DNA of 64,000 bases from positions 116-64,115 of the forward strand of contig JBCCNM010000002.1 in the NCBI GenBank assembly GCA_039025835.1, read 5' to 3'. This DNA is from Pseudomonadota bacterium. Lineage in GTDB: Bacteria; Pseudomonadota; Gammaproteobacteria; Steroidobacterales; Woeseiaceae. The notes under the pieces were generated by a model that worked only from the letters and a program-made list of their open reading frames with translations, had not been told where the DNA came from and did not search any database. Shown in pieces: positions 11,557-38,881 of the stretch (the stretch's first letter is position 1; each line of letters starts with the position of its first letter). Made by a program: the position numbers and the translations under genes.

Positions 11557-12549
11557 ATGACGCGAATTGCAATCATTGGTGCCGGCCTGGCCGGACTCGT
11601 TCTCGGCCGTCAACTCAGTGCACATCACGAGGTGACGTTGTTCGAAAAAGCCCGCGGTGTCGGTGGCCGCATGGCAACGCGCTATGCCGGAGAATTCCGC
11701 TTTGATCACGGCGCGCAATTCTTCACCGCCCGCAGCCGTCGGTTTCGTGATTTCCTGGCGCCTTTTATCGCTGAGGGTAGCGTCGCGCCCTGGTCAGCGC
11801 GGTTTGCCGAGCACACGCGCGCCGACATCACGGCGGCGCGTCAGTGGGGCGACGAGCACCCGCACTTCGTCGGCGTGCCAGGCATGAACGCTCTGCCAAA
11901 ACGACTCGCAGATGATCTCGATATTCGGCTACAAACCCGCATTGTTGCAGCGACACCGTCCGCTGCTGGCTGGCAACTCGTTGACGAGCATGCCGCCGAA
12001 CACGACGTTGACTGGCTGATCGTGACGGTACCCGGGCCGCAGGCCGCAGAGCTGCTGGCCGAGCCGATGCCGGACGCTGCCCGACAGGCGTCGACTGGAA
12101 TGAAGGCTTGCTACGCTGTGATGCTCGGCTTCGATGAACCCCAAACGACCGGTTTCGACGCCAGTCGCGTTCTCGATGCCGACATCAGCTGGATGTCCGT
12201 CAACAGTTCAAAACCGGGGCGCGACATTCCGTTCACGATGGTCGTGCACGCCACCAACGCCTGGGCCGATGCCAATCTTGGTCTGCCGCTGGCCGACGCG
12301 AAGCGGCACCTGTTGTCGGAGTTTGAGGCGGTTAGCGGGATAGACCCCGGTGTTGCAGTGCACAGCGACATCCATCGCTGGCGGTATGCCAATACCGGCA
12401 AACAGGACAGTTCGGGTTACGTATTGGATGTTGAACAGCGACTCGGGCTGTGCGGCGACTGGCTGATTCGCGGCCGGGTGGAAGCCGCGTTTCAGAGCGC
12501 GATGCGCCTCGCGGATCGTTTAGGCGACGTCCTCGTCAGCGATCGTTGA
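11557..12549 (+). CDS. NAD(P)/FAD-dependent oxidoreductase (renalase/amine-oxidase-like)
   Basis: ATG 11557 gives MTRIAIIGAGLAGLVLGRQL...FEKARGVGGRMATR, a dinucleotide-binding fold. The upstream part of the track ORF is antisense to nei. Confidence 0.7.
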   Translation: MTRIAIIGAGLAGLVLGRQLSAHHEVTLFEKARGVGGRMATRYAGEFRFDHGAQFFTARSRRFRDFLAPFIAEGSVAPWSARFAEHTRADITAARQWGDEHPHFVGVPGMNALPKRLADDLDIRLQTRIVAATPSAAGWQLVDEHAAEHDVDWLIVTVPGPQAAELLAEPMPDAARQASTGMKACYAVMLGFDEPQTTGFDASRVLDADISWMSVNSSKPGRDIPFTMVVHATNAWADANLGLPLADAKRHLLSEFEAVSGIDPGVAVHSDIHRWRYANTGKQDSSGYVLDVEQRLGLCGDWLIRGRVEAAFQSAMRLADRLGDVLVSDR

Positions 12550-14472
12550 GACGGCCTGCAGCAGCCGTTCGTGCAGAGTTTTCGCATTGTAGGGTTTGCG
12601 CACGATGGTGACGACGTTTGCCGGCCGCGAACTTTGCAGTTCGTCTTCATCGATCATGCCCGACGCGATCACAACTGGCAGTCCGGGTCGCAGCTCCGCC
12701 ACGCGTCGGGCGAGTTCGATACCGGTCATGTCCGGCATCATGTAGTCGAACACGGCGACGTCAATGGCGTGATTCGCATCGCTGATGTAATCGATCGCAT
12801 CGAGGGCATTGTTGAGACTGTAGACGGCGCAGCCGTATTCGCCCAGCAGCAGCGATATTGAATCGGTGATGGCGAGTTCATCGTCTACGAGGAGTACGCC
12901 GATGGCACCGGCGGGCGTTGCGCTTACGGGCTTCACCGGCTCGTCAACGACCAACGAATCGAGATCGGCCTCGGCGCGTGGCAGCAGCACCCGGACGCGG
13001 GTGCCTTTGCGTAACTGACTGTCGATGAGCAGACCGCCACGAGCATACGATACGGCGCTGTGCACTATGGAGAGTCCGAGACCGGTGCCGCGGCCAGGAT
13101 CTTTGGTGGTGAAAAACGGATCCAAAAGCCGGTCGAGATTTTCAGGCGGAATCCCGGTCCCGGTGTCAGTGACGGTGAGCTGCACGTAGACGCTGGGATG
13201 CAGCCGCCCGGTGAGTGTCTGCAACGGTTCGTCCATGCGCGTTTCGGAAAGGGTGATGAACAGTTCTCCCCCCTGCTCCTCCATCGCGTGCATCGCGTTG
13301 GTGCAAAGATTGGTGACGACCTGCTGCATCTGGGTCGCGTCGGCGATCACTTGCGAACAGGATTCGTCGATATCAACACGAATGCGAATATTCGACGGGA
13401 AGGAGCTGCGAATCAGCTGGATGGAGTCGCGCAAAACGGTCTGTAGCGCCAGCGAACGAACGTCCACGTCACTGGCTCGACTGAAGGACAGGATACGTTC
13501 AACCAGTGACTTTGCGCGGGAACTACCCATCTCGATTCGGGACAGGTAACGCCGCACTTTTTCCGGTTCGTCTGAATGACTGCGAGCCAGTCCCGTGTAG
13601 CCGGAAATGGCCTGCAGGATGTTGTTGAAGTCGTGCGCGATGCCGCTGGCCAGGGTACCGATCGATTCCAGTTTTTGTGTTTGATTCAGTGACTTCTCGA
13701 CCACCCGGCGCCGATCCAGCATATCGTTGAAGTGCTGGCCGAGGACACCGAACTCGTCGTTGCTGGCGATCGTGACGCGTGCATCGAGGTCACCGTCTGA
13801 CACGCGCTGCGTGGCGTCAATGAGCTTGTCGATTCGGCGGGTTACGACGATGTGAAACAGCACACCGAGACACAGAGCCAGGAACGCAGTGCCGAGAGTC
13901 AGCGCGAGGGTCTGTAACCGCACCTGTTCCAGTGCAACCGTCTTTGCCGGGCGCAGGTCTTTCTCGTACCACAGAATCCCGCGACCGGTGTTGCCGAGGG
14001 TATTGGTCGCGTCCACAAGCTGGACCGTATACGCCGCCACGAGAAAGTCGGCACTGTCAGACACGACCACGTCACTGATGCCCGAACTGTTCATGACAGC
14101 CCGCATCTGGCGACGCAGTCCATCCAGTTCCGTACCAGTGCCGCGCAGCACGGTGTGCAACGGTCGGCCGACATCCTCACGTCGCAGTGACGCGATGACA
14201 CTGCCATCCTCCAGAGCCAGACTCGCGTTCAAAATGTGCCGTTCCGTGCCCAAAGAGACGATGTTCTCCTGCACCCAGCTCATTTCGCCGTAACGGTAGC
14301 CGTGCTCGACCTGCGACTGTACGCGTTCAAGCTGAGTACGCTTGTCGCTTATGGCGTCTGCAACCACGCGCTGCACCGCTGCGTCACCGAAAATCGAGTA
14401 GGTCAGCCAGGCCAGCAACCCCGCGAAGAGGATCAGCGTTATCGGAAACAGGTTCCTGACAGTATGGCGCAT
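12520..14472 (-). CDS. hybrid sensor histidine kinase/response regulator
   Basis: 650 aa: TM, periplasmic region, TM, HAMP, HisKA (GIAHDFNNIL), HATPase (DTGTGI, GTGLGLSIV), then a C-terminal receiver (VLLVDDE...VFDYMMPDMTG...RKP). Confidence 0.85.
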   Translation of the reverse strand: MRHTVRNLFPITLILFAGLLAWLTYSIFGDAAVQRVVADAISDKRTQLERVQSQVEHGYRYGEMSWVQENIVSLGTERHILNASLALEDGSVIASLRREDVGRPLHTVLRGTGTELDGLRRQMRAVMNSSGISDVVVSDSADFLVAAYTVQLVDATNTLGNTGRGILWYEKDLRPAKTVALEQVRLQTLALTLGTAFLALCLGVLFHIVVTRRIDKLIDATQRVSDGDLDARVTIASNDEFGVLGQHFNDMLDRRRVVEKSLNQTQKLESIGTLASGIAHDFNNILQAISGYTGLARSHSDEPEKVRRYLSRIEMGSSRAKSLVERILSFSRASDVDVRSLALQTVLRDSIQLIRSSFPSNIRIRVDIDESCSQVIADATQMQQVVTNLCTNAMHAMEEQGGELFITLSETRMDEPLQTLTGRLHPSVYVQLTVTDTGTGIPPENLDRLLDPFFTTKDPGRGTGLGLSIVHSAVSYARGGLLIDSQLRKGTRVRVLLPRAEADLDSLVVDEPVKPVSATPAGAIGVLLVDDELAITDSISLLLGEYGCAVYSLNNALDAIDYISDANHAIDVAVFDYMMPDMTGIELARRVAELRPGLPVVIASGMIDEDELQSSRPANVVTIVRKPYNAKTLHERLLQAVSTIADEDVA

Positions 14473-15488
14473 CAGGGAACGCTCGGCGGCGTCAGCGCAC
14501 TGATCACAGCATCCGACATCAGCAGTGACGCATCGAGATCACTATCGAGAATACCGACATCAATCATCAGAGCATTCAGCGCCCGTATCCTCTCCCGCAG
14601 TTGTCCCTGTTCGGCCGACAGGTAAGCAGCGTTCATCGGGTGGTCGAAAAACGTGAGCTGTTGCAGGGCCTGGTTGATCTCAACCGGTGAGACTCCGCGT
14701 CGGTCTGACATCCACTCAGCAGACTGAGCCGGATTTTGTTCAAGCTGCTCCAGCGCCGCAAACCAGCCCTCGGCAAGAATCATGAGCTTGTCTTGATGGT
14801 GATGCAGTACATGCGGAGTCACGGCCAGCACATCGATGATTTCACCGGGAATTTCACGCGAGGAAAACAGTTCGACCATACCGCGGGCCTTGAGGCGTTC
14901 CAGCACCGGACTGAAGGTTACCACCGCATCGACACGCCCTCGTTCGATCATCATTTCCTGCTCGTCGATCTCCACGGAGACGATGTCAACGTCGTCGAGA
15001 CGCATGCCGTTTGTTTCAAGACCGCGTGCCAGCATCAATGCGCCGAGCGCCGTGCTCTCTGCCGCAACGCGCTTGCCGGTCAGCGCACGCATGTTGGCAA
15101 TTTCGGGACTGGCGACGATCGCGTCGCCGCCGTTTGAAGAGTCGAGTATCATCACAACAACAATGTCGACACCGGTCTGGCGCATGGCCAGCACCTCATC
15201 AAGCGTCAGCGCAGCTGCATCGATCGTGCCATTGGCAAACGAGCGCATGACCTGTGTCGATGAGGAAAATTCCAGCACGCGTGCATCGGACTCAGCGAGA
15301 GTGCCTGCCTTCTGCGCGAGAAAGAACGGTTCGAAGCCGAGCCAGACGTTGGTCCCGAGCGTGATCGGGTGCCCGTCATTGTGATCACGTGACAACAGGT
15401 CGATTGTGGTGCCGGGGATACGGGACACGACGAATGCAACCGCAATCAGTACAAGTGCGTACAGCAGCAGGTTTCGATTCGTAGGCAT
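14472..15488 (-). CDS. periplasmic solute-binding protein (NMT1/THI5, nitrate/sulfonate/bicarbonate ABC-type fold)
   Basis: 338 aa with an N-terminal signal anchor and SsuA/NMT1-like architecture. Its stop overlaps the kinase start by 1 nt. Confidence 0.6.
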   Translation of the reverse strand: MPTNRNLLLYALVLIAVAFVVSRIPGTTIDLLSRDHNDGHPITLGTNVWLGFEPFFLAQKAGTLAESDARVLEFSSSTQVMRSFANGTIDAAALTLDEVLAMRQTGVDIVVVMILDSSNGGDAIVASPEIANMRALTGKRVAAESTALGALMLARGLETNGMRLDDVDIVSVEIDEQEMMIERGRVDAVVTFSPVLERLKARGMVELFSSREIPGEIIDVLAVTPHVLHHHQDKLMILAEGWFAALEQLEQNPAQSAEWMSDRRGVSPVEINQALQQLTFFDHPMNAAYLSAEQGQLRERIRALNALMIDVGILDSDLDASLLMSDAVISALTPPSVP

Positions 15489-15585
15489 TGGCAGATTCCG
15501 TGATGATGAGTCGCTCGCGGCTTATGCGCTATTCTAGCGAATTGAGCGATCATGCGCTGAGCGGGCGAATGCGACGAGGACACAC

Positions 15586-15870
15586 ATGGAACTGATGCAG
15601 GATCTCATCACGGGTGGACGTATCGTGGATATCGTGCTGGTGGTGATGGGAATTGAACTTGTCGTCTCTGCGATTATCGCCAGACGGCGCGGTATTCCGC
15701 TCGATATCCCGGGTCTGGCATTCAATATTGGCGCCGGAGCCAGTCTCGCGCTCGCGCTGCGCGCCAGCCTGACCGGTGACGGCTGGCAGTGGATTGCCGT
15801 GTGGCTCATCAGTTCGCTCGTCTTCCACGTGCTCGATATCAGCAGGCGCTGGCAGCAATCCCGACGCTAG
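15586..15870 (+). CDS. small hypothetical membrane protein
   Basis: 94 aa with 3 hydrophobic segments. It ends 10 nt before the TauE-like start. No recognisable family. Confidence 0.4.
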   Translation: MELMQDLITGGRIVDIVLVVMGIELVVSAIIARRRGIPLDIPGLAFNIGAGASLALALRASLTGDGWQWIAVWLISSLVFHVLDISRRWQQSRR

Positions 15871-15880
15871 CGAGTCTCTG

Positions 15881-16759
15881 ATGGATATTTTCCAGTACTG
15901 GTTCATGTTTCCGGTGGCCATCGGTGTGGCGACCTGCGCGATGCTCAGCGGCATTGGCGGTGCGGCGCTGTTCACGCCGATTTTCGTGCTGCTGTTCCCG
16001 CTGCTCGGCCCGGACTACGTGTTGTCCTCCACCGTAGCCGCGATCGCTGCGGCGTTGATCACCCAGACCTTCGGCTTTTTGTCAGGTTTCATCGGTTACC
16101 AGCGCCGCGGCCTGATCGACTACGGGCTTGCCCGTCGGATGCACGTGATCTCGGTACCTGTGGCCATGGTTGGTGCACTGATTGCGACTTCCATCAACGA
16201 TGCGTTCCTGCTGGCCGGCTATGCGCTGCTGGTGCTGGTCCTTGGGGCCGGTCTCGTGCGTCAGGGCGAACCTTCAGCGGGTCAAACGGATGTACCGCAG
16301 GAGCTCCGATTCGTTGTCGATCGCGCCGGCAAGGAACATCGCTTTGTCGACCCGGGGCGAACGACACGCGGGACGCTGCTGACGATGGCCGGTGCGTTTC
16401 TGACCGGCCTGGTGTCGGTCGGCATCGGTGAGGTGACGATCTCACAGCTCACACGACGCGGTGTGCCGATCGCCGTTGCGGCCGCCACGTCCGTGCTCGT
16501 CGTCATCGTGACCGTAGCTACCGCATCAACGACTCTGGCGGTGCAGCTCATTCGCGAAGGCGGTCTGTCTGCGATTCCCTGGAACCTGCTGCTCTGGGAT
16601 ATTCCCGGCGTGCTGATCGGTGGTCAGATCGGGCCACGTCTGCAGGGCAGGATTCGGCAGATCACGATGCAGAGAGCAATCGGCGCTCTGTTTTTCCTGC
16701 TGTCGATCGCGATGGCGTATGTCGCCTGGCTGCGTTTCCAGGGCGGTTCGCTGCATTGA
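15881..16759 (+). CDS. TauE/SafE (DUF81) family anion exporter
   Basis: The internal ATG gives MDIFQYWFMFPVAIGVATCAMLSGIGGAALFTPIF. It is a polytopic protein with the duplicated TauE-type repeat. Confidence 0.7.
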   Translation: MDIFQYWFMFPVAIGVATCAMLSGIGGAALFTPIFVLLFPLLGPDYVLSSTVAAIAAALITQTFGFLSGFIGYQRRGLIDYGLARRMHVISVPVAMVGALIATSINDAFLLAGYALLVLVLGAGLVRQGEPSAGQTDVPQELRFVVDRAGKEHRFVDPGRTTRGTLLTMAGAFLTGLVSVGIGEVTISQLTRRGVPIAVAAATSVLVVIVTVATASTTLAVQLIREGGLSAIPWNLLLWDIPGVLIGGQIGPRLQGRIRQITMQRAIGALFFLLSIAMAYVAWLRFQGGSLH

Positions 16760-16760
16760 C

Positions 16761-17492
16761 TCAGGCGGCGGTCGCGCGCCCAACCATCCTGCGGCGCTGC
16801 AACGTAATGCGGGCCTGATGGTAGAGCAACAAGGCGACACCCAGAACAGTTGGCGTCGCCCAGAGAATCGGATTAAAGGCGTACTGCGGCAGCAGGTTTA
16901 CAGCGCCGAAAGCGAGAAACGCCGTGTAAACCGAAATGCCCGCTCCGACCAATCCCCGCGTGTGTTGAATCAGCCACTCATTCGGGGGAGGCGTCGATCG
17001 CAGGATAAAGTGTGTATTCAAGACCGGTGCAATAAGCCCGATCGACGAGATACCGATCATTAGCGGTTCGCCGATTACGAATCCCTGTGCGGCGCAGTGG
17101 ACTGCCGCGACAAACGTAGCGCATTGCAAAAACAGGTTCAGGGGTGTTCGGTTGGCGTGGTGAGTGCGTTTGTTGCGAATGCACAGCAATCCATACCAGG
17201 CCAGCATGATGGTCAGTATCGCCAGGTACATCATCATCCAGCCAAACACGCCGCGGATTCGGTCAACATCCTCCCAGAACGGATGAGTCTGTAGAGGTGC
17301 GACCAGCGTGCACAGACTTATGCCGATGGCCAATCCACCGGTCAGGAGCATGCTGCTCACAAAGGTTTTTCCCCAGAGACGATGGTTGCGCCCGCCCTTT
17401 TTGCCGACGATAGGTACCCACACGCACAGCAAGCCCGCCGCACCAGTGACAATATGTGCGTAAATCAAGAACTTGAACAGGTAAACAGCCAT
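16761..17492 (-). CDS. hypothetical polytopic membrane protein
   Basis: ATG 17492 is preceded by GAGAGGGAGAA (SD). About 6 TM helices. Family not recognised. Divergent from crtI. Confidence 0.5.
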   Translation of the reverse strand: MAVYLFKFLIYAHIVTGAAGLLCVWVPIVGKKGGRNHRLWGKTFVSSMLLTGGLAIGISLCTLVAPLQTHPFWEDVDRIRGVFGWMMMYLAILTIMLAWYGLLCIRNKRTHHANRTPLNLFLQCATFVAAVHCAAQGFVIGEPLMIGISSIGLIAPVLNTHFILRSTPPPNEWLIQHTRGLVGAGISVYTAFLAFGAVNLLPQYAFNPILWATPTVLGVALLLYHQARITLQRRRMVGRATAA

Positions 17493-17585
17493 GTTCTCCC
17501 TCTCAAAGCCAAGGCCACCCATCGCCTACGTTGCACAGTATAATATGCAGCGGCGCTGCGCCCGCAGCATAAGGACAAATACGGT

Positions 17586-19130
17586 ATGGAAAAGCCAGCA
17601 ACGGCGGTCGTAATTGGCAGTGGGTTTGGCGGTCTCGCGGCTGCTGTCCGGCTCGCCGCACGAGGCGTCAAGGTCACTGTTTGCGAGCGACTGGACGCCC
17701 CTGGCGGACGAGCCTACGTTTATCGCCAGGACGGCTATACCTTTGACGCCGGCCCCACGATCGTCACTGCACCGTTTCTTCTCGAGGAACTGTGGGAACT
17801 GTGCGGTAAACGCCTGTCCGACGATATCGATCTGCGCGAGCTGAACCCGTACTACACGATCCGCTTCGATGACGGCAGCCACTTCGACTACAGCGGTGAT
17901 CACGAAGCGATGAAGCGGGAAGTCGCCAAATTCAACCCGGACGATGTCAATGGTTACGAGCGCTTCCTGGAGGCCAGCGCATTGCTGTACAGGGTGGGTT
18001 TCGACAAGTTGCTGCACGTGTCGTTTGGCTCCTTCGCTCGCATGTTGAAGGTCCTGCCAGACCTGATACGCGCGCAATTCTATCGCTCCGTGCACAGTCT
18101 CGTGGCCAGCTACATAAAACATCCGAAACTCAGGCGCGTATTCAGTTTTCACCCGCTGCTGGTCGGCGGCAATCCGTTCAGCACGACCGCCGTTTATGCG
18201 TTGATCGCACAGCTTGAACGCAAGCACGGTGTGCATTTCGCGATGGGTGGTACAGGCGCTCTTATCAACGGCCTCGTCGGGCTGATCGAGTCCCAGGGTG
18301 GCACAATCCGGTACAACGCCTCGGTCAGTCAAATCGTCGTGGAAGGAACTCGCGCGGTCGGTGTAAAACTGGAGTCAGGCGAACAGCTTGACGCTGATAT
18401 CGTTGTATCCAATGCGGATTCGGCTACGACCTACAAACATCTGCTGGCGGATTTTCCCCGACGTCGCTGGACGGACAGAAAGCTGGAGCGTGCACGCTAC
18501 TCCATGAGCCTGTTCGTTTGGTATTTCGGAACCGATCGTCGCTACGATGACGTGCCACATCACATGATGCTTCTCGGTGAACGATACGAAGCCCTGCTAA
18601 CGGATATTTTTAAGCGTAAGCACCTGGCTGAAGACTTTAGCCTGTATCTTCACCGCCCCACAGCAACGGATACGTCTCTGGCACCGGAAGGTTGCGATGC
18701 GTTCTACGTACTGTCGCCGGTGCCGCATCTGGACAGCGGTGACGACTGGAATCAGATCGCAGATCAATACCGGCAAAAGGTCCAGGAGGCTCTCCAAGAC
18801 ACCGTTCTACCGGAGCTCGAACAGCACATCGCAGCCTCGCACATGCTAACACCGCTGGATTTTCGGGAACGTTTGTTTTCGGTCAAGGGTGCTGCATTCG
18901 GCCTGGAACCTGTCCTGACCCAAACGGCCTGGTTTCGACCGCACAATCAGAGTGAGGAAGTTGATGGCCTTTACATCGTCGGTGCCGGTACGCATCCGGG
19001 TGCCGGTCTTCCTGGCGTAATCTCTTCGGCCAAAGTCCTGGACGATGTTATCCCGGGGCTTAGCGGACAGAGCCAGCCAAGTCCTGCGCAATGCTCTCCG
19101 CAGCAAGTCGACCCGACAGGGCTGTCATAG
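17586..19130 (+). CDS. crtI: phytoene desaturase
   Basis: 514 aa. N-terminal AVVIGSGFGGLAAAVRLAARG, ..FDAGPTIVTAP.. and C-terminal LYIVGAGTHPGAGLPGVISSAK are hallmark CrtI motifs. Confidence 0.92.
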   Translation: MEKPATAVVIGSGFGGLAAAVRLAARGVKVTVCERLDAPGGRAYVYRQDGYTFDAGPTIVTAPFLLEELWELCGKRLSDDIDLRELNPYYTIRFDDGSHFDYSGDHEAMKREVAKFNPDDVNGYERFLEASALLYRVGFDKLLHVSFGSFARMLKVLPDLIRAQFYRSVHSLVASYIKHPKLRRVFSFHPLLVGGNPFSTTAVYALIAQLERKHGVHFAMGGTGALINGLVGLIESQGGTIRYNASVSQIVVEGTRAVGVKLESGEQLDADIVVSNADSATTYKHLLADFPRRRWTDRKLERARYSMSLFVWYFGTDRRYDDVPHHMMLLGERYEALLTDIFKRKHLAEDFSLYLHRPTATDTSLAPEGCDAFYVLSPVPHLDSGDDWNQIADQYRQKVQEALQDTVLPELEQHIAASHMLTPLDFRERLFSVKGAAFGLEPVLTQTAWFRPHNQSEEVDGLYIVGAGTHPGAGLPGVISSAKVLDDVIPGLSGQSQPSPAQCSPQQVDPTGLS

Positions 19131-20556
19131 GGACGCCCGGCCCCGGATGAACCGTACCACCGGCGAAATACAAACCGGGCTGCTTTGAACGACTGCCACC
19201 GCGCCGAAAAGAGCCGGCCCACCCATGTGTGGGCCAACCGTAAATCGCGCCCTCACTGCCTGGAAACCTGACGGCGAAATCCTGAGGTGCAGTCAGCGTA
19301 GCCTCGGCGGTATCGATATGTAGTCCATGACGATTCAGCAGACCAAACACACGGTCCTCAAAAACGCTGATCTCATCGTTCGACAGTCGCCTTGGGGGTG
19401 CATTCATCAAAACAAAAAGGCGCTCTGTACTTTCATCCCCGCGTTGCGGGCCGATGTCGCTGCCGGTCATCGGTCGATCTTGTGCACACACATAAAGTGT
19501 CGGTTCGTCACAGACCTGCTGCTGATCAAAGATCGCTGCAAACTCCGCACGATAGTCCCCTCCGAAAAACACAGTGTGATACTGCAGCGGAAAACCGCTG
19601 GCTCGCGCGCTTAGACTCCAGGTCAACGCGGACAGCGAACGCGCCTCCTTTCTGCGATCCGGTACAGCACGCGTCAATGCGTCGCCGAGCAAGCCCGCTG
19701 ACAAGGCATTGATATCTCCATTGAAGACCACCGCTGCAGCATCTATCGACTCACCGCTTTCCAGCAATACGCCCTGCACTTTTCCGCGCCTGAGACGTAT
19801 TTCATCGACGCGTTCACCCAATCGGACGCTGACACCACGCTCCGCCGCGAGTTTCGCGAGCGCGTCGGCGAATCGCTGCATGCCACCTTTAACCGCCCAA
19901 ACCCCCGCTTGCTCAGCATGGGCGATCAGCATCAGGGTCGCTGGTGATGCCATCGGCGACGAACCACAGTAAGTCGCGTAGCGGGCGAAAAGCTGGCGCA
20001 ACCTGGGGTCCGTAAAGACTCTCCCAAGTTCATCCCACAAGGAAACAAAGGGCTTTGTCTCGAGCAGTCGCCGTGGATGCCGCAGGCCAACGTTGACAGT
20101 CAAGCCAGCCAGTGTTGGCCTTTGCGTCTGCATGAAACCTGCGTCAAGCGTATCGAATACCCGTGCAGTTTTGTCTGTAAACTTCCGGTACGCCTGCGCG
20201 TCAGATTGACCGGCAAAATCGCGAATCGCCTCGATGGAACGATCCACATCAGCAAACAAATCAAGAGAGCTGCCGTCCAGCCAGCTGTGGCGAGCGAGAC
20301 AGTCCGCCTGCTGAAGATCGACAATGTCATCCAGCGTGGTACCCAGCTTGTCCATCAAGGCGTCGAACACCCAGCGCATGGTAAAAACGGTAGGCCCGGA
20401 GTCCACGCCGCCGCTGGACGTCGCCACCTCCCTCATCTTTCCGCCGGGCTGGTCATGCTGCTCGATCAATGACACATCGAAACCGCGCGAGACGAGTTCA
20501 AGTGAGGCCGTTAGTCCGCCGATCCCCGCGCCCACGACAACGACGTTGTTCTTCAT
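19060..20556 (-). CDS. crtD: 1-hydroxycarotenoid 3,4-desaturase (methoxyneurosporene dehydrogenase)
   Basis: 498 aa CrtI-family flavoprotein. VVVVGAGIGGLTASLEL, FARYATYCGSSP and YFAGGTVHPGPGVPMTALSG match the CrtD branch. PGC context supports the call. Confidence 0.8.
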   Translation of the reverse strand: MKNNVVVVGAGIGGLTASLELVSRGFDVSLIEQHDQPGGKMREVATSSGGVDSGPTVFTMRWVFDALMDKLGTTLDDIVDLQQADCLARHSWLDGSSLDLFADVDRSIEAIRDFAGQSDAQAYRKFTDKTARVFDTLDAGFMQTQRPTLAGLTVNVGLRHPRRLLETKPFVSLWDELGRVFTDPRLRQLFARYATYCGSSPMASPATLMLIAHAEQAGVWAVKGGMQRFADALAKLAAERGVSVRLGERVDEIRLRRGKVQGVLLESGESIDAAAVVFNGDINALSAGLLGDALTRAVPDRRKEARSLSALTWSLSARASGFPLQYHTVFFGGDYRAEFAAIFDQQQVCDEPTLYVCAQDRPMTGSDIGPQRGDESTERLFVLMNAPPRRLSNDEISVFEDRVFGLLNRHGLHIDTAEATLTAPQDFAVRFPGSEGAIYGWPTHGWAGSFRRGGSRSKQPGLYFAGGTVHPGPGVPMTALSGRLAAESIAQDLAGSVR

Positions 20557-21980
20557 GCGCTAAGGCGCACCGCTTCAACGCGACGTAGCCGACAGATTAT
20601 CTGCTCGGCCGGTCTCGTCGTCAGCCGTGAAACGGGTCGCACTAACCCGGGAGACTCCACATCGACGTCATAGCGCCGCAGCAGTGAGGCAAGAATCAGG
20701 CCTGCCTCGATCGTTGCAAATGCCGCGCCCACGCAGACCCTGGGTCCGGAACCGAATGACATCAAAACACCTTTGTCGTCCGCTCGATCGAATCGATCCG
20801 GATCAAAACACGCTGCGTTGCGCCACAGTAGCTCGCTGCGATGGGAGGTCCACGGCGAAATCATGATCATCGCACCGCGCTTGACCTGCAGATCGCCAAC
20901 GCGTGTCGATTCTGCCGCCACGCGCGGAATAAAGGTGATCGGCGGATAAAGCCGTAACGCCTCGCGAAACACGTTTCTTACCAACGGCAATTGCTTGACG
21001 TGTCGAAACTCGATCGGGCCGTCACCGACAGCCCCGGCGATCTCATCTCGCAGTCGTCGAACCATTTCGGGATGCTGGGCGAGAATAAAAAATGCCCAGG
21101 TCAAAGCGCTGGCCGTTGTCTCATGCCCGGCGAGGAAAAACACGCCAAGCTGATCGATGAGTTCCTCGCGCGTGAAGCCTTTGCCCGTGGACTCGTCGCG
21201 AGCCTGAATGACGGCTGAGACAATATCGTCATGCGCATCCGGATTTTCCAATCGCGGATCAACCAGGTCACCGATGTGACGACGAATACGTTCACAGGCC
21301 AGGAGCACACGATCCGGTTGCTTCACGTCTGCCCACGGTTTACCGAATATCAGCTGACCGACATTCACACTCGCGACGCTGCGCTCAAAGTCAGCAAAGG
21401 CATCAAACACTTCTCTCGCCGTTTCCTCGGCCAGCGGGACCGAGAACACCGTTCGACAGATCACATCGGCGGTCAATTCGCTCATGGCGAAATCCAGCGA
21501 GAACGCCTCACCGGACGCGGCCCGTGCGTCCAGTTTTTTTATGTAGTGATTCACGGCATCGGACATGGAGCTAAAGGCCGCACCGATGCGCATGTGCGAG
21601 AACGCAGGGTCTATCATCGCCCTTTGGCGTCGCCACTTCTCTCCGCTGGACACGAAAATCGAATCGCCAACCAGTGGCGCAAGCGCACCCACCATCAGGT
21701 CGTTCTTGGGAAAGACATCCAGCGGATCTGTTGCGAGCTGTTTGGCGAGCTCGGGGTCATTGACCAGCTTTATTGATCGTCGCGAATAGCCGAGTGTCGT
21801 GAACGGTTTGCTGTAGGCCTCAGCCGGAACCAGACTCAGCAGGTCCCCGTCACCCTGACGCATTACCCGCAGCAACGACCGCAACGGTGTCAGTGGTTTT
21901 GGTGCCGGCGGTCGAAACAGTCCCTCGCTGCCTCGCACTGACGTTTCGTTTTGATCTCCCACACAACGTATTATAAGCAA
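20553..21980 (-). CDS. cytochrome P450
   Basis: I-helix FFLAGHETTASAL, EALRLYPP (ExxR) and the heme-thiolate loop FGSGPRVCVGAAFA are present. The stop overlaps the crtD ATG (ATGA). The TTG start is uncertain. Confidence 0.9.
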   Translation of the reverse strand: MLIIRCVGDQNETSVRGSEGLFRPPAPKPLTPLRSLLRVMRQGDGDLLSLVPAEAYSKPFTTLGYSRRSIKLVNDPELAKQLATDPLDVFPKNDLMVGALAPLVGDSIFVSSGEKWRRQRAMIDPAFSHMRIGAAFSSMSDAVNHYIKKLDARAASGEAFSLDFAMSELTADVICRTVFSVPLAEETAREVFDAFADFERSVASVNVGQLIFGKPWADVKQPDRVLLACERIRRHIGDLVDPRLENPDAHDDIVSAVIQARDESTGKGFTREELIDQLGVFFLAGHETTASALTWAFFILAQHPEMVRRLRDEIAGAVGDGPIEFRHVKQLPLVRNVFREALRLYPPITFIPRVAAESTRVGDLQVKRGAMIMISPWTSHRSELLWRNAACFDPDRFDRADDKGVLMSFGSGPRVCVGAAFATIEAGLILASLLRRYDVDVESPGLVRPVSRLTTRPAEQIICRLRRVEAVRLSA

Positions 21981-21992
21981 TGACGAGAGTGT

Positions 21993-23153
21993 TTGGCCTG
22001 CATCCAGGGGACAGATATCAAGAGTGTTTTGCTGACGTCAGGCCGTCTTCCGGTCAGTCTCGAATTGGCACGAGCGTTTCATGCAGCCGGCTGGCGAATC
22101 GTGGTCGCCGACCCGTGGCCCATGCATCTCTGCCGCATGTCAAGCTGCGTCGCGGTGACAGTCGACTTACCGGCACCACAGGACAATCCTGAGCACTTTG
22201 CCGCGACCCTCGAAAAACGATGCGTCGACCATGACATCGATTTGGTGGTACCGGTATCCGAAGAAACGCCCTACGTCGCCGCGCTGCGCGAACGCGCCGT
22301 TCCGGTGTTCACATCAGCGCCGGACACGGTGCTGACACTGCATGACAAACTGGGCTTTATCCGTCGCGCCGCACAGGCCGAACTTTCGGTCCCCGCGACG
22401 GTGAGAGCAGACCACGATAGCAAGACCATTCGCCAGACCGCTTTCGTCAGAAAACCGCGCTTTTCCTGTTCCGGCCGCGACGTCAGCTTTCATGCTGCCG
22501 GCAGCGACGTCCAGGAGGACTCGGCTTTCATTGTCCAGCAGCGCATCGAAGGAGACGCCATCAATGTGTTCGGCATCGCAGTAGACGGAGTGCTGCGGCT
22601 GTCGTCGGCTTATCGGGGCCGACTCGTCGACGGCAGTGTGGCCATCGCGTTTGAGCGTGAAGAACAGGCGGATGCCTGCACGTCGTGGGCGTCTCGTTTT
22701 GTGGCAGCAACGGGCTACACCGGCCTGATTGCCTTCGATTTTATCGTCGACGATGACGGTATTGCCTGGCCGCTGGAATGCAATCCACGCGCCACCAGCG
22801 GTATTCATTTCCTGAACCCGGCAGCGATTGTCGCCGCGATCACCAACGATGAGCTGCCGATTGACCACGTCAAGCCCGTCACCCGCATGGCAGAAAAGTG
22901 GTCGTGCTTTACCCGCTATCTCGCCTCTCTGGGCACACGCGACGCCACGCGACAGGCCTGGCAGGTGCTCACCGGATTCAGCGATGTGAGCTGGCAACGC
23001 GATGATCCCTGGCCTTTTCTCGCCATGCCGTTCAACAGCTGGCGCATACTTCTGAAAAGCCGACAAAAAAACCACACTTTTGCGAGCGCGGCCGTCGCCG
23101 ATATCGAGTGGCGTCCCACCGAACGGGCCGGAGGTATGTGTGACGATCGTTGA
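21993..23153 (+). CDS. ATP-grasp domain protein
   Basis: 386 aa with a pre-ATP-grasp Rossmann-like N-terminus (VLLTSGRLPVSLELARAFHAAGWRIVVAD). The C-terminal half ..IAFDFIVDDDGIAWPLECNPRATSGIH.. is typical of ATP-grasp ligases. TTG start uncertain. Confidence 0.7.
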   Translation: MACIQGTDIKSVLLTSGRLPVSLELARAFHAAGWRIVVADPWPMHLCRMSSCVAVTVDLPAPQDNPEHFAATLEKRCVDHDIDLVVPVSEETPYVAALRERAVPVFTSAPDTVLTLHDKLGFIRRAAQAELSVPATVRADHDSKTIRQTAFVRKPRFSCSGRDVSFHAAGSDVQEDSAFIVQQRIEGDAINVFGIAVDGVLRLSSAYRGRLVDGSVAIAFEREEQADACTSWASRFVAATGYTGLIAFDFIVDDDGIAWPLECNPRATSGIHFLNPAAIVAAITNDELPIDHVKPVTRMAEKWSCFTRYLASLGTRDATRQAWQVLTGFSDVSWQRDDPWPFLAMPFNSWRILLKSRQKNHTFASAAVADIEWRPTERAGGMCDDR

Positions 23154-24153
23154 TGAGCGCGGACCGCTGCAGATTCGACGAAGCCAAACCCTCGAAGCGG
23201 CGTTCGCTGACTTGCTGTCGCGTACGCGTTTCGGCACGCACAAGCTGACCTATCGGCGACGTCGTGTGTCCGAGTCTCTGACGCGTCTGTCCAATACCCA
23301 CTATTTCAGTCTGTACGACGGAGACCATCTTGTCGGTGGATACGCCTTGACGCCGACCGACATCATCAGGGATACGGCAACACACAAGGCGCTTTATCGT
23401 CACGCACTGTTTGTCGATGACCGCTACCAGCAGCGGGGGTTGGGACACTGGCTGGTCAATGCCGCGCTGGACGCGGCAACAGACAACATTGAGTTCAGCT
23501 TTGGCAGCATTGAACTTGGCAATCGACGCTCGTCGGCTGTCGTCGACAAAGGTTCAGCCTGCACAATCGGTCACCTGCGATCCGAGCTGATTTACCGACA
23601 GTGGACGCGACGTTCTGCGTTGGTCGCATTCAACCCGGAGGAAGCACTCATCCGCGCGGCGGTAGACGACAGTGAATCAGACTGCACTTACCGTTTTGCA
23701 AGCCGTCGTGATGCGCCCTACTACGGTGTGCTGCTCGACGGACAGCTCGCTGCCGGCGCGAGTGCACGTCTCAACAGCCTGGACCTTCGATCGCCGGGGC
23801 CCGGTATCGGCCGGGCCTATGCATCACTGGTCCGATTTTTGCCAGCAGCGAGACGCCGTTTCGACCCCGCCGACTTCCGCTTCGTCAGCCTGTCCGATGT
23901 CGTCGTGGCTGCAAACAGCGGCAACGCCTGGAATGCGCTTGTCAGTCACATCCTGTATGAGTTTGGCGCGCACATGGCCGGCGTCACCCTCGATCCACGA
24001 CGCATTGCCTACCAGCGCCTGTGCGATCTCGGACTGCTGGGACGATTCGCTCGTGCTACGCGTGAAGAGTTTAAGTTGGTGGCGAGGCCACATTCGTCTG
24101 CCGCGCCCTCGCTCGACTCTGCCATCAGTGGACTCGTCCCGCTGGACATGTAG
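23140..24153 (+). CDS. GNAT-like N-acyltransferase domain protein with an uncharacterised C-terminal domain
   Basis: GTG 23140 is preceded by GGAGGT and overlaps the ATP-grasp stop by 14 nt. HALFVDDRYQQRGLGHWLVNAAL matches GNAT motif A (Q/RxxGxG/A). The remaining roughly 200 aa are not recognisable. Confidence 0.55.
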   Translation: MTIVDERGPLQIRRSQTLEAAFADLLSRTRFGTHKLTYRRRRVSESLTRLSNTHYFSLYDGDHLVGGYALTPTDIIRDTATHKALYRHALFVDDRYQQRGLGHWLVNAALDAATDNIEFSFGSIELGNRRSSAVVDKGSACTIGHLRSELIYRQWTRRSALVAFNPEEALIRAAVDDSESDCTYRFASRRDAPYYGVLLDGQLAAGASARLNSLDLRSPGPGIGRAYASLVRFLPAARRRFDPADFRFVSLSDVVVAANSGNAWNALVSHILYEFGAHMAGVTLDPRRIAYQRLCDLGLLGRFARATREEFKLVARPHSSAAPSLDSAISGLVPLDM

Positions 24154-24212
24154 GCCGCGACGCTGGCAACGTCTTACACTTACGCGGCGAATGCTGTTTC
24201 AGGATACCGGCT

Positions 24213-25094
24213 TTGACAAAGACACTTACGCCCGCAGTGAATGCTGAGCGAAAGCTTATCCAGTCGGATGGCCACGACATCAGTTACTACGTCGCCGGAA
24301 CGGGTGACCCGGTCTTGCTGGTCCACAGCATCAACGCAGCGGCCTCGGTTTTCGAAGTAAAACCTGTGTTCGAGGCGCTCGCGGCGGACTACCAGGTGTA
24401 CGCCCCGGATCTGCCGGGCTTCGGTTTTTCGGATCGCTCTGATCGCCGATACAGCATCGATCTGTATACCCAGGCCATCAGCGACATGCTTGAGACGATC
24501 GGCGGCGATAAACCAGTGCACGTACTCGGCTTGTCGCTTTCATCGGAGTTCGTTGCTCGCCAGGCAAGTCGCAGTCCGGAACGTATTCGCAGCCTTGCGC
24601 TGGTCTCACCGACCGGTTTTGATCGGGGTGCCAACCGACTACGAAGCGATGAGGGAGTCACTCGGGAAAACACCATCGCCGCAGGACTGACAGGCATCCC
24701 TGGCCTCCGATCCGGCCTGTTCGGGCTACTGGTTCGACCGGGTTCCGTGCGCTATTTCCTGAAACGCACATTCGGCTCAAACACCGTCGATGAAGCCCTT
24801 ACTCGCTACTGCATCCTGACAGCTGCCCAGCCCGGCGCAATGTATGCACCCCTGGCATTTATCTCCGGCCGACTGTTTTCCCGCGATATCCGGACCGTCT
24901 ACGAATCGCTGCAGATGCCGGTGTGGCTCGGCCACGGCATTCGCGGCGATTTCCAGGACTATTCGGAAACTGCCTGGACCGAGACGCGTCCCAACTGGAC
25001 AGTCCGGGAATTCAACACGGGCGCGATCCCCTACTTCGAAGACCCGAGTCGCTTCTTGACGGAATATCGGCGATTCCTCGCCGGAGTCGACTAG
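24213..25094 (+). CDS. alpha/beta-fold hydrolase
   Basis: 293 aa. TTG start with AGGA 7 nt upstream. PVLLVHSINAAA oxyanion region, nucleophile elbow HVLGLSLSSEF (GxSxS variant) and a C-terminal His region are present. Confidence 0.75.
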   Translation: MTKTLTPAVNAERKLIQSDGHDISYYVAGTGDPVLLVHSINAAASVFEVKPVFEALAADYQVYAPDLPGFGFSDRSDRRYSIDLYTQAISDMLETIGGDKPVHVLGLSLSSEFVARQASRSPERIRSLALVSPTGFDRGANRLRSDEGVTRENTIAAGLTGIPGLRSGLFGLLVRPGSVRYFLKRTFGSNTVDEALTRYCILTAAQPGAMYAPLAFISGRLFSRDIRTVYESLQMPVWLGHGIRGDFQDYSETAWTETRPNWTVREFNTGAIPYFEDPSRFLTEYRRFLAGVD

Positions 25095-25352
25095 CGTCAG
25101 GACGCATTGCAGCGTCGATCCAGCCGGACCGCAGCAACACACGAGAGATCGATTTGTCGCTGAAATTTGCGGACTTTTCTCAAATTTCGCCGAAATTCGC
25201 GGCAAGAAAGGCAGGAATAGCGTGTTTTTTCCACGTCAACCTAGAAAAGCCGGCAAACAGGTCTATGCTTGTCCACCGAGGCCCGACGGATGGTATCAAT
25301 GGTGATCCGGTCGTCAGGACGCTGACCTGATTGTCCGGTACGCAACGAAAAT

Positions 25353-25383
25353 GCGCGTCGCGACCGTTGCAGCCGCGACGCGC
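25353..25383 (-). terminator. intrinsic-terminator-like hairpin (distal copy) downstream of the puf operon
   Basis: Perfect 10-bp GC stem GCGCGTCGCG/CGCGACGCGC with an 11-nt loop. On the minus strand it is followed by ATTTTCGTT. Confidence 0.6.
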
Positions 25384-25569
25384 AATGCTAACTGTCCGGT
25401 TCAGGGTTTCGCGAGGGATGGATACGCTGTATTCGCGCCGGTTCTGCTTAAGAAGCGAGGTGAGACCGCAGTGGGCGGTCGGGCAACGAGCTTCTTGCAC
25501 ATAACCGAGATCCGTCTCCAGACAGTTCGCGGGGTTCGTTCTGTCGCACTCTCCGTTGGTTGAGAGAAG

Positions 25570-25600
25570 GCGCGTCGCGACCATTGCGGCCGCGACGCGC
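25570..25600 (-). terminator. GC-rich stem-loop (proximal copy), weak terminator or RNA-stabilising/processing hairpin
   Basis: Same perfect 10-bp stem. On the minus strand it is followed by CTTCTCTCAACC, which is pyrimidine-rich but not a U-tract. Confidence 0.45.
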
Positions 25601-25617
25601 AAAGCTAACCGTCCAGG

Positions 25618-25959
25618 TCAGGGTTTCGCGAGGGATGGATACGCTGTGTTCGCGTCGGCGTTGCCTGTCGGCGTTTGTGTGTCTTCAAAAGAGGACACAC
25701 AAGCGGCCGATGAGACGTCACCGAAATCCGTTCCCAGACGGTTCGCGGGGTTCAAACGAAGCTCTGTCGAACAATCCGAAGACACCGCACAAGGCGGCTT
25801 GACTCCGGTCTGTTCTTCATCGACTTCCGTCCATGTCATGTCGGTCTTCGAATCTGAATCCACAACGGGACTGGCGTGACCCGTTGTGTAGACCGCGACC
25901 GCTGACAGACAGATTCCCGTCATCAGCGTCGCAACCAGTTTCAGATCCCTGTCGTTCAT
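25618..25959 (-). CDS. hypothetical 113-aa protein with N-terminal hydrophobic anchor, coupled to pufM (coding status uncertain)
   Basis: The ATG lies 4 nt after the pufM stop. N-terminus is MNDRDLKLVATLMTGICLSAVAVYTTG. There is no CxxCH heme motif, so it is not PufC. The 3' half lies inside repeat unit 2. Confidence 0.35.
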   Translation of the reverse strand: MNDRDLKLVATLMTGICLSAVAVYTTGHASPVVDSDSKTDMTWTEVDEEQTGVKPPCAVSSDCSTELRLNPANRLGTDFGDVSSAACVSSFEDTQTPTGNADANTAYPSLAKP

Positions 25960-33513: not shown

Positions 33514-33557
33514 TGTCAGTTTACTCTGACGCTCTTTATTGTCAACTAATCCTTACA
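33514..33557. promoter_or_regulatory. paired PpsR/CrtJ-type sites upstream of bchC
   Basis: TGTcagtttactctgACG (33514-33531, one mismatch), then 8 bp, then TGTcaactaatccttACA (33540-33557, perfect TGT-N12-ACA). Both lie in the crtF-bchC gap. Confidence 0.55.
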
Positions 33558-35619: not shown

Positions 35620-35702
35620 TGTAATTTACAATAGACAGTGGCAACCTGTCAGTCAATTTGGACACAGATCCCAGGCTGACCAACTGTGAAACGTTTTGCA
35701 CA
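35620..35702. promoter_or_regulatory. cluster of three perfect PpsR/CrtJ palindromes (TGT-N12-ACA) in the crtE/crtC divergent promoter region
   Basis: TGTaatttacaatagACA 35620-35637; TGTcagtcaatttggACA 35647-35664; TGTgaaacgttttgcACA 35685-35702. The last overlaps the putative crtC GTG. Confidence 0.65.
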
Positions 35703-37969: not shown

Positions 37970-38881
37970 TCATGCTGTGCCTCGCGCGTTTTGACGGATG
38001 AGTCCGGCGATAATCTCCGGAGACTCCTCGTGAGCGAGGTGCCCGAGACCGTCGAGTCGATGGATGACCAGCGACGGCATGACGCGCTGAATCTTGTCCG
38101 CCTCCTGCGGACTGATCGCCTTGTCTTCGGTGCCGACCAGCAGAGTCAGTGGCGACTCGAGTTCGGGCAATCGCTTAACCAGCGGCTGCAAATCCCACGA
38201 CGCCATCATTTCGAGCACGGCCGCGAGATGCGGTTCCGCCTGGAACAATCGCTGGTAGAACGACAGCCCGTCAGCATCCAGTGTTGAACCGGTGCCCTTC
38301 AGCACACGCAGAACCGCCTTCGGATCCTTGGCACGGCGTGCCAGCAATCTCGGCATCAGCCGCGTCGTGGCAAAAAACTGTGCCATCGGCGAGAAAAGGC
38401 TTTGCATCGCGCCGCCAAATGGCAAGAGTGCCGCGTTGATTCCACACAGCGTCGCAGCGTTGACGCCGCGATTCAGAGTCAGGTCCAGCGCGATTGCCGC
38501 ACCCGCTGAGTGGCCAACGATATGCGCAGGCTCGATATCCAGTGTGTCCAACAGATCGGCAAGCGCCGAGGACAGGCTGGAAAGCGTCATCGAGCTGGAC
38601 GGCAGGCGTTCGGTGAAGGCGTGGCCCGGCAGATCCACCGCGATAACGTCAAAGTGTTCAGCCAGTGGCGGAATCAGGTCACGCCAGGTGTGGGTCGACG
38701 CGGCCGTGCCGTGGATCAGCAGCATGACGGGACCTTGCCCCGTGCGCTGCACGTGCCAGCGGCAGCCAGACGACATCACAAACCGACTGCTCATCCGATG
38801 CGGCCAGTCTGCCGGCAGGAACGGTGCGTCAGACGGTTCGTCCGCATGTTCATGATGCGCAGAAAAGACCAGCGTCATCAT
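37970..38881 (-). CDS. bchO: magnesium chelatase accessory protein (alpha/beta hydrolase)
   Basis: 303 aa alpha/beta hydrolase (VMLLIHGTAAS, GHSAGAAIAL) immediately downstream of bchI-bchD. It overlaps bchD by 4 nt. Confidence 0.8.
   Translation of the reverse strand: MMTLVFSAHHEHADEPSDAPFLPADWPHRMSSRFVMSSGCRWHVQRTGQGPVMLLIHGTAASTHTWRDLIPPLAEHFDVIAVDLPGHAFTERLPSSSMTLSSLSSALADLLDTLDIEPAHIVGHSAGAAIALDLTLNRGVNAATLCGINAALLPFGGAMQSLFSPMAQFFATTRLMPRLLARRAKDPKAVLRVLKGTGSTLDADGLSFYQRLFQAEPHLAAVLEMMASWDLQPLVKRLPELESPLTLLVGTEDKAISPQEADKIQRVMPSLVIHRLDGLGHLAHEESPEIIAGLIRQNARGTA

Follow-up and report, generated by a model that had tools for sequence, protein, structure and literature searches.

As far as the crtEBICDF(A) genes are concerned, carotenoid biosynthesis in purple-type phototrophs is generally taken to be essentially worked out, and carotenoid amides or amino-conjugates have, to our knowledge, not been described in bacteria. 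The nearest described logic is that of staphyloxanthin and the C30 carotenoic-acid pathway (CrtP, AldH, CrtQ, CrtO), in which a terminal methyl group is oxidised to an acid, conjugated to a polar group and acylated with a fatty acid by an FAD oxidase, an aldehyde dehydrogenase, a glycosyltransferase and a membrane acyltransferase. Neither ATP-grasp nor P450 genes figure in a 2023 review of the carotenoid genes of purple bacteria, according to which nothing is known of the genes for the oxidised (rhodopinal type), glycosylated and fatty-acid-esterified carotenoids of purple bacteria (PMC10604819); for gemmatoxanthin, too, the enzymes that introduce its aldehyde and carboxyl groups have yet to be found (PMC8342508). 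In the literature that we searched, no paper describes a P450/ATP-grasp module or links an ATP-grasp enzyme to crt genes.

The window analysed here (the whole 64,000-nucleotide stretch) carries a complete photosynthesis gene cluster (PGC) of an uncultured Woeseiaceae-like gammaproteobacterium, in which 25 neighbouring ORFs match bch, crt, puf or puh equivalog models. Three plus-strand genes within it encode a predicted ATP-grasp ligase (21993–23153, 386 aa; ATP-grasp_3, PF02655, 32.9 bits vs. 23.2), a two-lobed GNAT protein (23140–24153, 337 aa; Acetyltransf_1, PF00583, 35.2 bits vs. 20.7) and an α/β-fold protein (24213–25094, 293 aa; Abhydrolase_1, 58.3 bits vs. 25.8). Upstream lie crtI (phytoene desaturase, 17586–19130, plus strand; TIGR02734, 624 bits), crtD (1-hydroxycarotenoid 3,4-desaturase, 19060–20556, minus strand; NF045637, 645 bits vs. 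a cut-off of 580) and a cytochrome P450 gene, and downstream pufM, pufL and bchZ. The original prediction had these three genes, with these domains, between P450-crtD and pufM and outside the canonical PGC gene set; positions, domains and location are all upheld, and none of the three proteins reaches a bch, crt, puf or puh equivalog model. They are more than chance ORFs, since their GC3 (0.66–0.67) is the same as that of the neighbouring genes and full-length orthologs (30–73% identity) are kept in equivalent position in other contigs.

The P450 gene (20553–21980, minus strand; Pfam p450, 237.7 bits) is transcribed divergently from the ATP-grasp gene and lies directly upstream of crtD on the same strand, the crtD start overlapping its 3′ end by 4 nt; translation of the P450 may begin at a TTG (21980) or further in. 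The haem motif FGSGPRVCVG and the I-helix motif AGHETT are intact. Its best solved-structure matches are the plant carotenoid hydroxylase CYP97A3/LUT5 (E = 1.2e-48, a lead of some ten orders of magnitude over the next different protein) and CYP97C1 (1.5e-31), and it is “CYP97-like” in the sense of E-value, the P450 nomenclature rule being at least 40% identity to CYP97 members. The best NCBIfam matches are terpenoid oxygenases (pentalenene oxygenase, 1.2e-46). Plant CYP97 enzymes act on β/ε-ring substrates, whereas the substrates of this bacterial P450 are likely acyclic because the cluster encodes crtC/D/F of the spirilloxanthin pathway; and P450s of the window type, unlike plant CYP97 enzymes, are always paired with an ATP-grasp gene.

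This pairing emerged from a metagenome survey of 80 loci, 74 of which were counted for P450 linkage. A P450 ortholog is immediately adjacent to the ATP-grasp gene in 62 of the 74 and present anywhere in the locus in 64; in the remaining 10 the contig starts with the ATP-grasp gene, so that all 64 loci extending beyond that gene have a P450 ortholog (51–86% identity). The P450 is thus the invariant partner of the ATP-grasp gene. Among the 20 long loci (at least 6 kb on both sides), crt genes are found in 18 and bch or puf genes in 15, which bears out the expectation that the genes are co-inherited with pigment genes. However, it is the carotenoid genes, not the PGC itself, to which the pair is linked: 5 of the 20 long loci have no bch or puf gene, and in loci L082, L091 and L057 the pair stays with crtI/crtD/crtB/crtC with no bch or puf genes nearby. 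Synteny with crt is preserved over ATP-grasp identities of 36–68% in three different gene arrangements, and the arrangement is kept down to 36% identity and also in MAGs named Woeseiaceae and Paracraurococcus (Acetobacteraceae). Since no cultured carrier was identified, no known pigment can be matched to these genes, and gene adjacency suggests a shared pathway but does not prove it.

A third gene usually accompanies the pair: u253 (16761–17522, minus strand), which encodes a polytopic membrane protein of 253 aa, is labelled in 39 of the 74 survey loci and normally adjoins the P450. Its 46 distinct orthologs have about 6–7 hydrophobic segments and five invariant histidines (H23, H47, H80, H187 and H235). 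Family searches gave only sub-threshold matches to DUF2306 (9 of 10 members, best E = 2.9e-4) and a PDB search found no relative; the protein may partner the P450 and bind a metal or haem. Where the u253/P450/ATP-grasp triad lies outside a PGC, it is surrounded by unrelated housekeeping genes and therefore behaves as a self-contained unit. The original prediction left out both the adjacent divergent P450 and u253.

The ATP-grasp protein belongs to the ATP-grasp superfamily by Pfam score, predicted fold and residues. Its AF2 model (pLDDT 95.1) has the three-domain ATP-grasp fold, and the putative ATP/Mg-binding residues K119, K154, E262, N264 and R266 are invariant in 59 sequences including the window protein, within which the ECNPRxxSGxH motif and K119/K154 are conserved. 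Foldseek matches are PurK, PylC, L-amino-acid ligases and biotin carboxylase (TM 0.55–0.62, E ~1e-14 to 1e-16); because these are generic (TM ~0.6, many subfamilies), the substrate class cannot be read from the fold. The carboxylate-amine ligases PylC, BacD/YwfE and PurK have the three-domain fold and the E-x-N and Lys motifs in common with the window protein, which differs from them in an extra conserved C-terminal helical region (residues ~300–370 of the AF2 model). A PDB sequence search gave no match at E ≤ 0.01. The best sequence model, PRK06849 (an NCBIfam “hypothetical protein”), matches with 234.4 bits (E = 2.2e-69), below its equivalog cut-off of 406. Two homology searches returned 910 and 1681 homologs, with some 90%-identity clusters holding >200 member sequences, and these homologs also occur in MAGs named Gammaproteobacteria and Sinobacteraceae. 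Distant relatives sit in KAS III/oxidoreductase/MBL/F390-synthetase clusters, in contrast to the crt/P450 context of the window family, and the protein is a member of a large, uncharacterised, crt-linked family.

The GNAT gene is tied to the ATP-grasp gene by translational coupling, as had been proposed. At the junction (23130–23153, plus strand, read directly from the sequence) a GGAGGT at 23130–23135 precedes the in-frame GTG start (23140), and the stop codon of the ATP-grasp gene follows at 23151–23153, which gives a 14-nt overlap. The ORF list allows a start at 23080 or 23140 with the end at 24153, and a 100%-identical NCBI protein of 337 aa (P0121) has the same GTG start. The corresponding genes of relatives share 14 or 31 nt or are separated by 1–4 nt, and a natural ATP-grasp/GNAT-like fusion protein (P0293) exists. 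The GNAT-like gene lies immediately 3′ of the ATP-grasp gene in 15 of 15 survey loci that bear it, and it is confined to a single clade of the ATP-grasp tree (neighbour-joining, calculated without support values); it is a clade-specific add-on.

The protein is a GNAT superfamily member by its Pfam domain and CoA-binding motif A, and the Acetyltransf_1 match spans only the N-terminal ~135 residues. This N-lobe is canonical, with the CoA-binding motif QQRGLGHW, in which G100 and G102 are nearly invariant in 35 family members. Motif A had been recognised in the original prediction, but the remainder, described there as an unrecognisable 200-aa C-terminal domain, is according to the predicted structure (AF2, pLDDT 85.8, pTM 0.85) a second, divergent GNAT-like lobe, and the whole fold resembles that of N-myristoyltransferase (NMT): the top 50 Foldseek matches are all NMT (E ~1e-12, TM ~0.6, 7–10% identity). 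In the model as in NMT, two GNAT lobes related by a pseudo-twofold make up a single chain of ~340 aa. The window protein differs in its low identity (the 7–10% above), in the classical GNAT motif A that its N-lobe retains, and in being bacterial and coupled or fused to an ATP-grasp ligase; Pfam NMT and NMT_C matched neither it nor 35 relatives. In NMT the C-terminal carboxylate reaches into the active site as catalytic base; in the window family, sequence conservation extends to the last 3 residues or so (P334-x-D-x). Out of 1.84 billion clusters, 381 belong to the family at E ≤ 1e-10, with lengths that are almost always 330–370 aa. These proteins define a new bacterial family of predicted NMT-fold acyltransferases.

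Our favoured reading, to which we give a probability of roughly 45%, is that the P450/ATP-grasp pair, usually with u253, is a widespread, undescribed carotenoid-tailoring module to which a coupled GNAT was added in one Woeseiaceae-like clade. Taking the observed gene presence, folds, intact catalytic motifs, synteny, coupling and fusion together, we infer a carotenoid substrate, an order of steps and a chemistry as follows. The P450 would oxidise a C–H or methyl group of an acyclic, spirilloxanthin-series carotenoid to give a carboxyl handle or, less likely, a hydroxyl. The ATP-grasp ligase would activate a carboxylate as an acyl phosphate and couple the handle on the carotenoid to an amino compound. 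In this clade the N-lobe of the GNAT would then bind acyl-CoA and pass its acyl group on to the amine so attached, yielding a carotenoid that is more amphipathic or lipidated. By analogy, this logic would be the same as that of staphyloxanthin; the enzymes of that pathway are unrelated to P450, ATP-grasp or GNAT proteins, and it conjugates a sugar ester where the proposed module would use an amino compound. In its most specific form, the P450/ATP-grasp pair and its membrane partner would make a previously unknown class of bacterial carotenoid, an oxidised acyclic carotenoid ligated to an amino compound, which in the Woeseiaceae-like clade would be N-acylated by the NMT-like GNAT to a “lipo-amino carotenoid”. 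This is a doubtful proposition; if true, it would involve the first ATP-grasp enzyme in carotenoid biosynthesis and would be widespread among uncultured aerobic anoxygenic phototrophs of marine and fresh waters. The conserved, abundant and unannotated P450 and ATP-grasp (and membrane protein) set inside crt clusters provides concrete candidate genes for an undescribed pigment modification, which makes the question directly testable by heterologous expression, and it shows that the commonly accepted PGC complement leaves out genes in many environmental phototrophs.

It is unlikely that the module acts instead on a non-carotenoid product (a quinone, an aminolipid of the membrane or an intermediate of bacteriochlorophyll synthesis, for example), which the P450 would hydroxylate and the ATP-grasp and GNAT proteins would furnish with an N-acyl amino-acid-type head group. 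Aminolipids are indeed made by GNAT-fold N-acyltransferases, the genes are inside PGCs in 15 of the 20 long loci, and the neighbouring α/β-fold protein weakly matches the ornithine-lipid acyltransferase OlsI (3e-5) and is coupled in relatives to a BciB-like gene (chlorophyll metabolism); but the pair that keeps its crt genes with no bch or puf genes nearby, and a P450 whose nearest solved relative is a carotenoid hydroxylase, argue against this.

The original prediction itself, in which ATP-grasp, GNAT-like and α/β-hydrolase proteins carry out three steps of a single tailoring pathway that does without the P450 and decorates a photosynthetic-membrane pigment, quinone or lipid, now seems quite unlikely. 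All three genes run in one direction, no plus-strand terminator is predicted between them, and their order recurs in the closest relatives (L001–L006, L009, L010, L015 and L020). However, the conserved core is the ATP-grasp gene and its invariant partner, the P450, usually with u253, and the α/β-fold gene, claimed as part of the trio, is present in only 4 of the 15 survey loci that bear the GNAT-like gene (it is missing from the other 11 and from L007). In the window it follows the GNAT gene after a 59-nt gap and has its own AGGA/TTG start, and is thus not coupled to it. It is set apart by 55–108 nt and in relatives overlaps an FrhB/BciB-like gene by 4–8 nt instead, and in L022 it is inverted relative to the ATP-grasp/GNAT-like pair, yet still adjoins the FrhB-like gene.

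The α/β-fold protein also appears from its sequence to have Ala in place of the canonical catalytic His. Ser108, in a G/A-L-S-L-S nucleophile elbow, is invariant and aligns to the CumD nucleophile, and D246 in HGxRGDF, a candidate for the catalytic acid, is likewise invariant, with a register against BchO that is off by 1–2 positions. The His position, beyond the final core strand, is Ala271, which hhalign against BchO, another PGC-encoded α/β-hydrolase fold protein (profile–profile probability 98.6), places opposite the GH histidine, and all 10 full-length orthologs have G-A-(I/L)-P there. The protein was rejected as a BchO (TIGR03056, 34.2 bits vs. a cut-off of 172.55), and the true BchO is elsewhere in the window (37970–38881, 291.4 bits). 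Because the canonical His appears to be missing and the gene is coupled to the BciB-like (FrhB-family) gene in relatives, the protein is probably outside the proposed chain and a separate unit from the ligase/acyltransferase core.

We judge it very unlikely that the ATP-grasp and NMT-like GNAT proteins modify a protein or peptide, for instance by RimK-like amino-acid addition and acylation at the N-terminus of a polypeptide of the reaction centre or antenna, or in making a RiPP-like product that involves the P450. The closest structures to the GNAT-like fold are protein N-myristoyltransferases, the P450 scores 3.6e-44 against the RiPP P450 ApyO (NCBIfam), and the genes abut the puf operon in this clade. 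In most lineages, however, the ATP-grasp gene is far from puf and has no GNAT-like partner, no conserved small precursor ORF was seen beside the pair, and the structural neighbours of the ATP-grasp protein include small-molecule ligases. Its identity as a graspetide maturase was rejected (TIGR04187, 13.4 bits, E = 0.034, vs. a cut-off of 350).

That the genes are hitch-hikers, retained by chance after an old insertion and functionally unconnected with photosynthesis or pigments, is highly improbable, for although no PpsR-type operator is present at the promoter and bch and puf genes are absent from 5 of the 20 long loci, crt synteny is held over 36–68% ATP-grasp identity in three arrangements, composition is like that of the neighbouring genes and the catalytic motifs are intact.

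Co-regulation with photosynthesis genes had been suggested as well; no PpsR/CrtJ-type TGT-N12-ACA site is present in the divergent region between the P450 and ATP-grasp genes, so this idea in its direct form is without support so far. Clusters of these sites do occur at the promoters of crtE/crtC and bchC. A strong intrinsic terminator-like hairpin (25352–25384, minus strand; 15 pairs and a T-run) ends the puf operon and forms the downstream boundary of the plus-strand genes.

The window carries a complete photosynthesis gene cluster (PGC; bchNBHLM, lhaA, puhA, an open reading frame (ORF) spanning puhB-puhC, acsF, puhE, bchIDO, crtB, crtC, crtE, crtF, bchCXYZ and pufLM), and after pufLM the gene order continues with the three genes studied here, a P450 gene, crtD, crtI and the gene for a 253-aa His-rich membrane protein (u253). 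Its nearest relatives are metagenome-assembled genome (MAG) contigs named Woeseiaceae or Pseudomonadota. The three plus-strand ORFs and the domains originally assigned to them were confirmed: an ATP-grasp gene at 21993–23153 (ATP-grasp_3, 32.9 bits; cut-off 23.2), a GNAT-like gene at 23140–24153 (the GNAT domain spans only the first ~135 residues) and an α/β-hydrolase-fold gene at 24213–25094 (Abhydrolase_1, 58.3 bits). Their GC3 values, 0.66–0.67, are those of the neighbouring genes. The features on which translational coupling of the first two genes had been proposed can all be read from the sequence: GGAGGT (23130–23135) is followed by ATGT and the GTG start at 23140, and the ATP-grasp stop codon lies at 23151–23153, an overlap of 14 nt; a 100%-identical database protein uses the same GTG. 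The α/β-fold gene begins after a 59-nt gap with its own AGGA/TTG start. The start of the divergent P450 gene (20553–21980, minus strand) is ambiguous (21861–21993); with the first possible TTG (21980) the P450 and ATP-grasp start codons are 12 bp apart, and P450 orthologs are annotated with lengths between 436 and 469 aa.

Which genes travel with the ATP-grasp gene was surveyed in 80 metagenomic loci fetched with an ATP-grasp profile, and so chosen by ATP-grasp similarity; 74 of these have an ATP-grasp ORF. Gene labels came from BLASTP comparison with the annotated proteins of the window, and homolog-bearing contigs were also inspected. A P450 ortholog (51–86% identity) is immediately adjacent to the ATP-grasp gene in 62 of the 74 loci and present somewhere in 64, and the ten loci that do not have one are contigs that start at the ATP-grasp gene. 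The u253 gene is found in 39/74. Where at least 6 kb is available on both sides (n = 20), crt genes are present in 18 loci and bch/puf genes in 15; the five non-PGC loci have unrelated housekeeping genes as flanks. The GNAT-like gene occurs in only 15/74 loci, always directly after the ATP-grasp gene and with the P450 gene divergent in all 12 whose contig reaches upstream, and the ATP-grasps that have this partner form one clade in a quick neighbour-joining tree (no support values). The α/β-fold gene is present in just four of these 15 loci; in relatives it lies 55–108 nt from the GNAT-like gene and overlaps a gene of the FrhB/FdhB family (BciB-like) by 4–8 nt, and in one locus (L022) the two are inverted together.

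After the survey the three genes were rejected as a single unit, and the original prediction was partly right: its tie to pigment (carotenoid) genes stands, and its three-gene module does not. The data support a conserved module of P450 and ATP-grasp, with or without u253, that is tied to carotenoid genes. The GNAT-like acyltransferase joins this module in one clade only, and the α/β-fold protein stands apart from it. We redefine the finding as an undescribed, widespread carotenoid-cluster module; no description of it was found in the literature searched in full text, which is not in itself proof of novelty. A GTDB scan with an 8-sequence GNAT-like alignment returned only three loci, and neither cluster look-ups nor a second homolog search gave a cultured carrier, the carriers having MAG names or no name.

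The P450 has intact haem-binding and I-helix motifs, its closest relative among solved structures is the carotenoid hydroxylase CYP97A3/LUT5 (1.2e-48), with other P450s far behind, and its top NCBIfam matches are terpenoid oxygenases. Just upstream of u253, one relative (L006:1175–2697) has a 413-aa ferredoxin-NAD+ reductase-like gene together with a conserved ORF of 94 aa, and these two could encode redox partners of the P450; L001–L005 also have a 94-aa ORF. The u253 protein (gene at 16761–17522, minus strand) has about 6–7 hydrophobic segments and five His residues that are invariant in 46 orthologs. It has sub-threshold DUF2306 matches only, and its identification as CrtA or another known carotenoid enzyme found no Pfam, NCBIfam or PDB support.

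A sequence search of the PDB gave no match for the ATP-grasp protein. Its excellent structural model (pLDDT 95.1) has PurK, PylC, L-amino-acid ligases and biotin carboxylase as neighbours (TM 0.55–0.62), and the protein has invariant Lys and E-x-N residues; the model confirms the predicted class, a carboxylate-amine ligase/carboxylase fold, within which fold matches do not discriminate substrate. An alphaproteobacterial homolog (38% identity) that has no crt context adjoins an aminotransferase gene. PLSDB plasmids hold only distant relatives (28–38% identity) in other contexts; two of these, on Pontibacillus (L094) and Shinella (L095) plasmids, share a recurring cluster of KAS III / ATP-grasp / NAD(P)-oxidoreductase / MBL-fold / F390-synthetase-like genes, to which Shinella adds a Rieske protein and a 366-aa GNAT that has no similarity to the GNAT-like partner.

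The GNAT-like protein gave a confident model (pLDDT 85.8, pTM 0.85) whose 50 best structural matches are without exception N-myristoyltransferases (NMTs), and because of these matches its C-terminal 200 aa, previously called unrecognisable, are now read as a second GNAT-like lobe. Pfam recognises only the N-lobe in this family, which has a conserved CoA motif and a C-terminus whose conservation stops just three residues short of the end. In an exhaustive profile search, 381 clusters scored E ≤ 1e-10, almost all of them 330–370 aa long. In one 751-aa database protein (P0293), an ATP-grasp (35% identity, E 3e-70) is fused to the GNAT-like protein. In some relatives (L006:10264–11604; L042) the GNAT-like and α/β-fold genes are separated by two additional genes, one for a small RimJ/RimL-like GNAT of 186 aa and one for a 240-aa CPBP/Rce1-like intramembrane protease.

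The α/β-fold protein is not BchO or a close paralog; the genuine BchO is encoded elsewhere in the window. It keeps Ser108, which aligns to a known nucleophile, and profile-profile alignment places Ala at the position of the catalytic His in 10/10 full-length orthologs, so by this alignment the catalytic His appears to have been replaced. The overlapping FrhB-like gene (405–416 aa) is present in L004, L005, L006, L015, L020 and L022; no trace of it is present in the whole window (best tblastn E 0.08), and it is also absent from the closest relatives, L001–L003. That it is BciB is something we infer, because there is no specific NCBIfam model.

From enzyme classes and gene context, the most likely mechanism is that the P450 would oxidise an acyclic carotenoid, the ATP-grasp enzyme would use ATP to ligate an amino compound at the position oxidised and, in this clade only, the NMT-like GNAT would N-acylate the product. 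The logic resembles that of the staphyloxanthin pathway, although the enzymes are unrelated. According to reviews, it is not known which genes give purple bacteria their oxidised, glycosylated or acylated carotenoids (PMC10604819; PMC8342508).

TGT-N12-ACA palindromes (PpsR/CrtJ-type) are enriched in the window (28 versus 11.8 expected) and cluster at promoters, with one upstream of bchC and three in the crtE/crtC divergent region (33540–33557; 35620–35702); the P450/ATP-grasp divergent region contains no such operator, and a sigma-70 scan found nothing. A strong terminator at 25352–25384 (minus strand) ends the puf operon. There pufC is a remnant, a 113-aa ORF after pufM (25618–25959, minus strand) that matches only PufC residues 296–338 (49% identity, E 6e-8), and a ~90-bp direct repeat (about 25340–25425 and 25570–25655) consists of the duplicated pufC 3' end and a GC-rich hairpin; in relatives pufC is intact (333–339 aa). 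A 401-aa ORF at 43456–44661 (minus strand) matches PuhB (residues 27–193) and PuhC (240–372); it represents a PuhB-PuhC fusion, or else ORF calling has run two genes together. The carotenoid end of the PGC (12520–16759) is flanked by genes for a 650-aa hybrid histidine kinase, an NMT1/SsuA-like periplasmic binding protein and an exporter of the TauE family, an order kept in L001–L004, L009 and L010.
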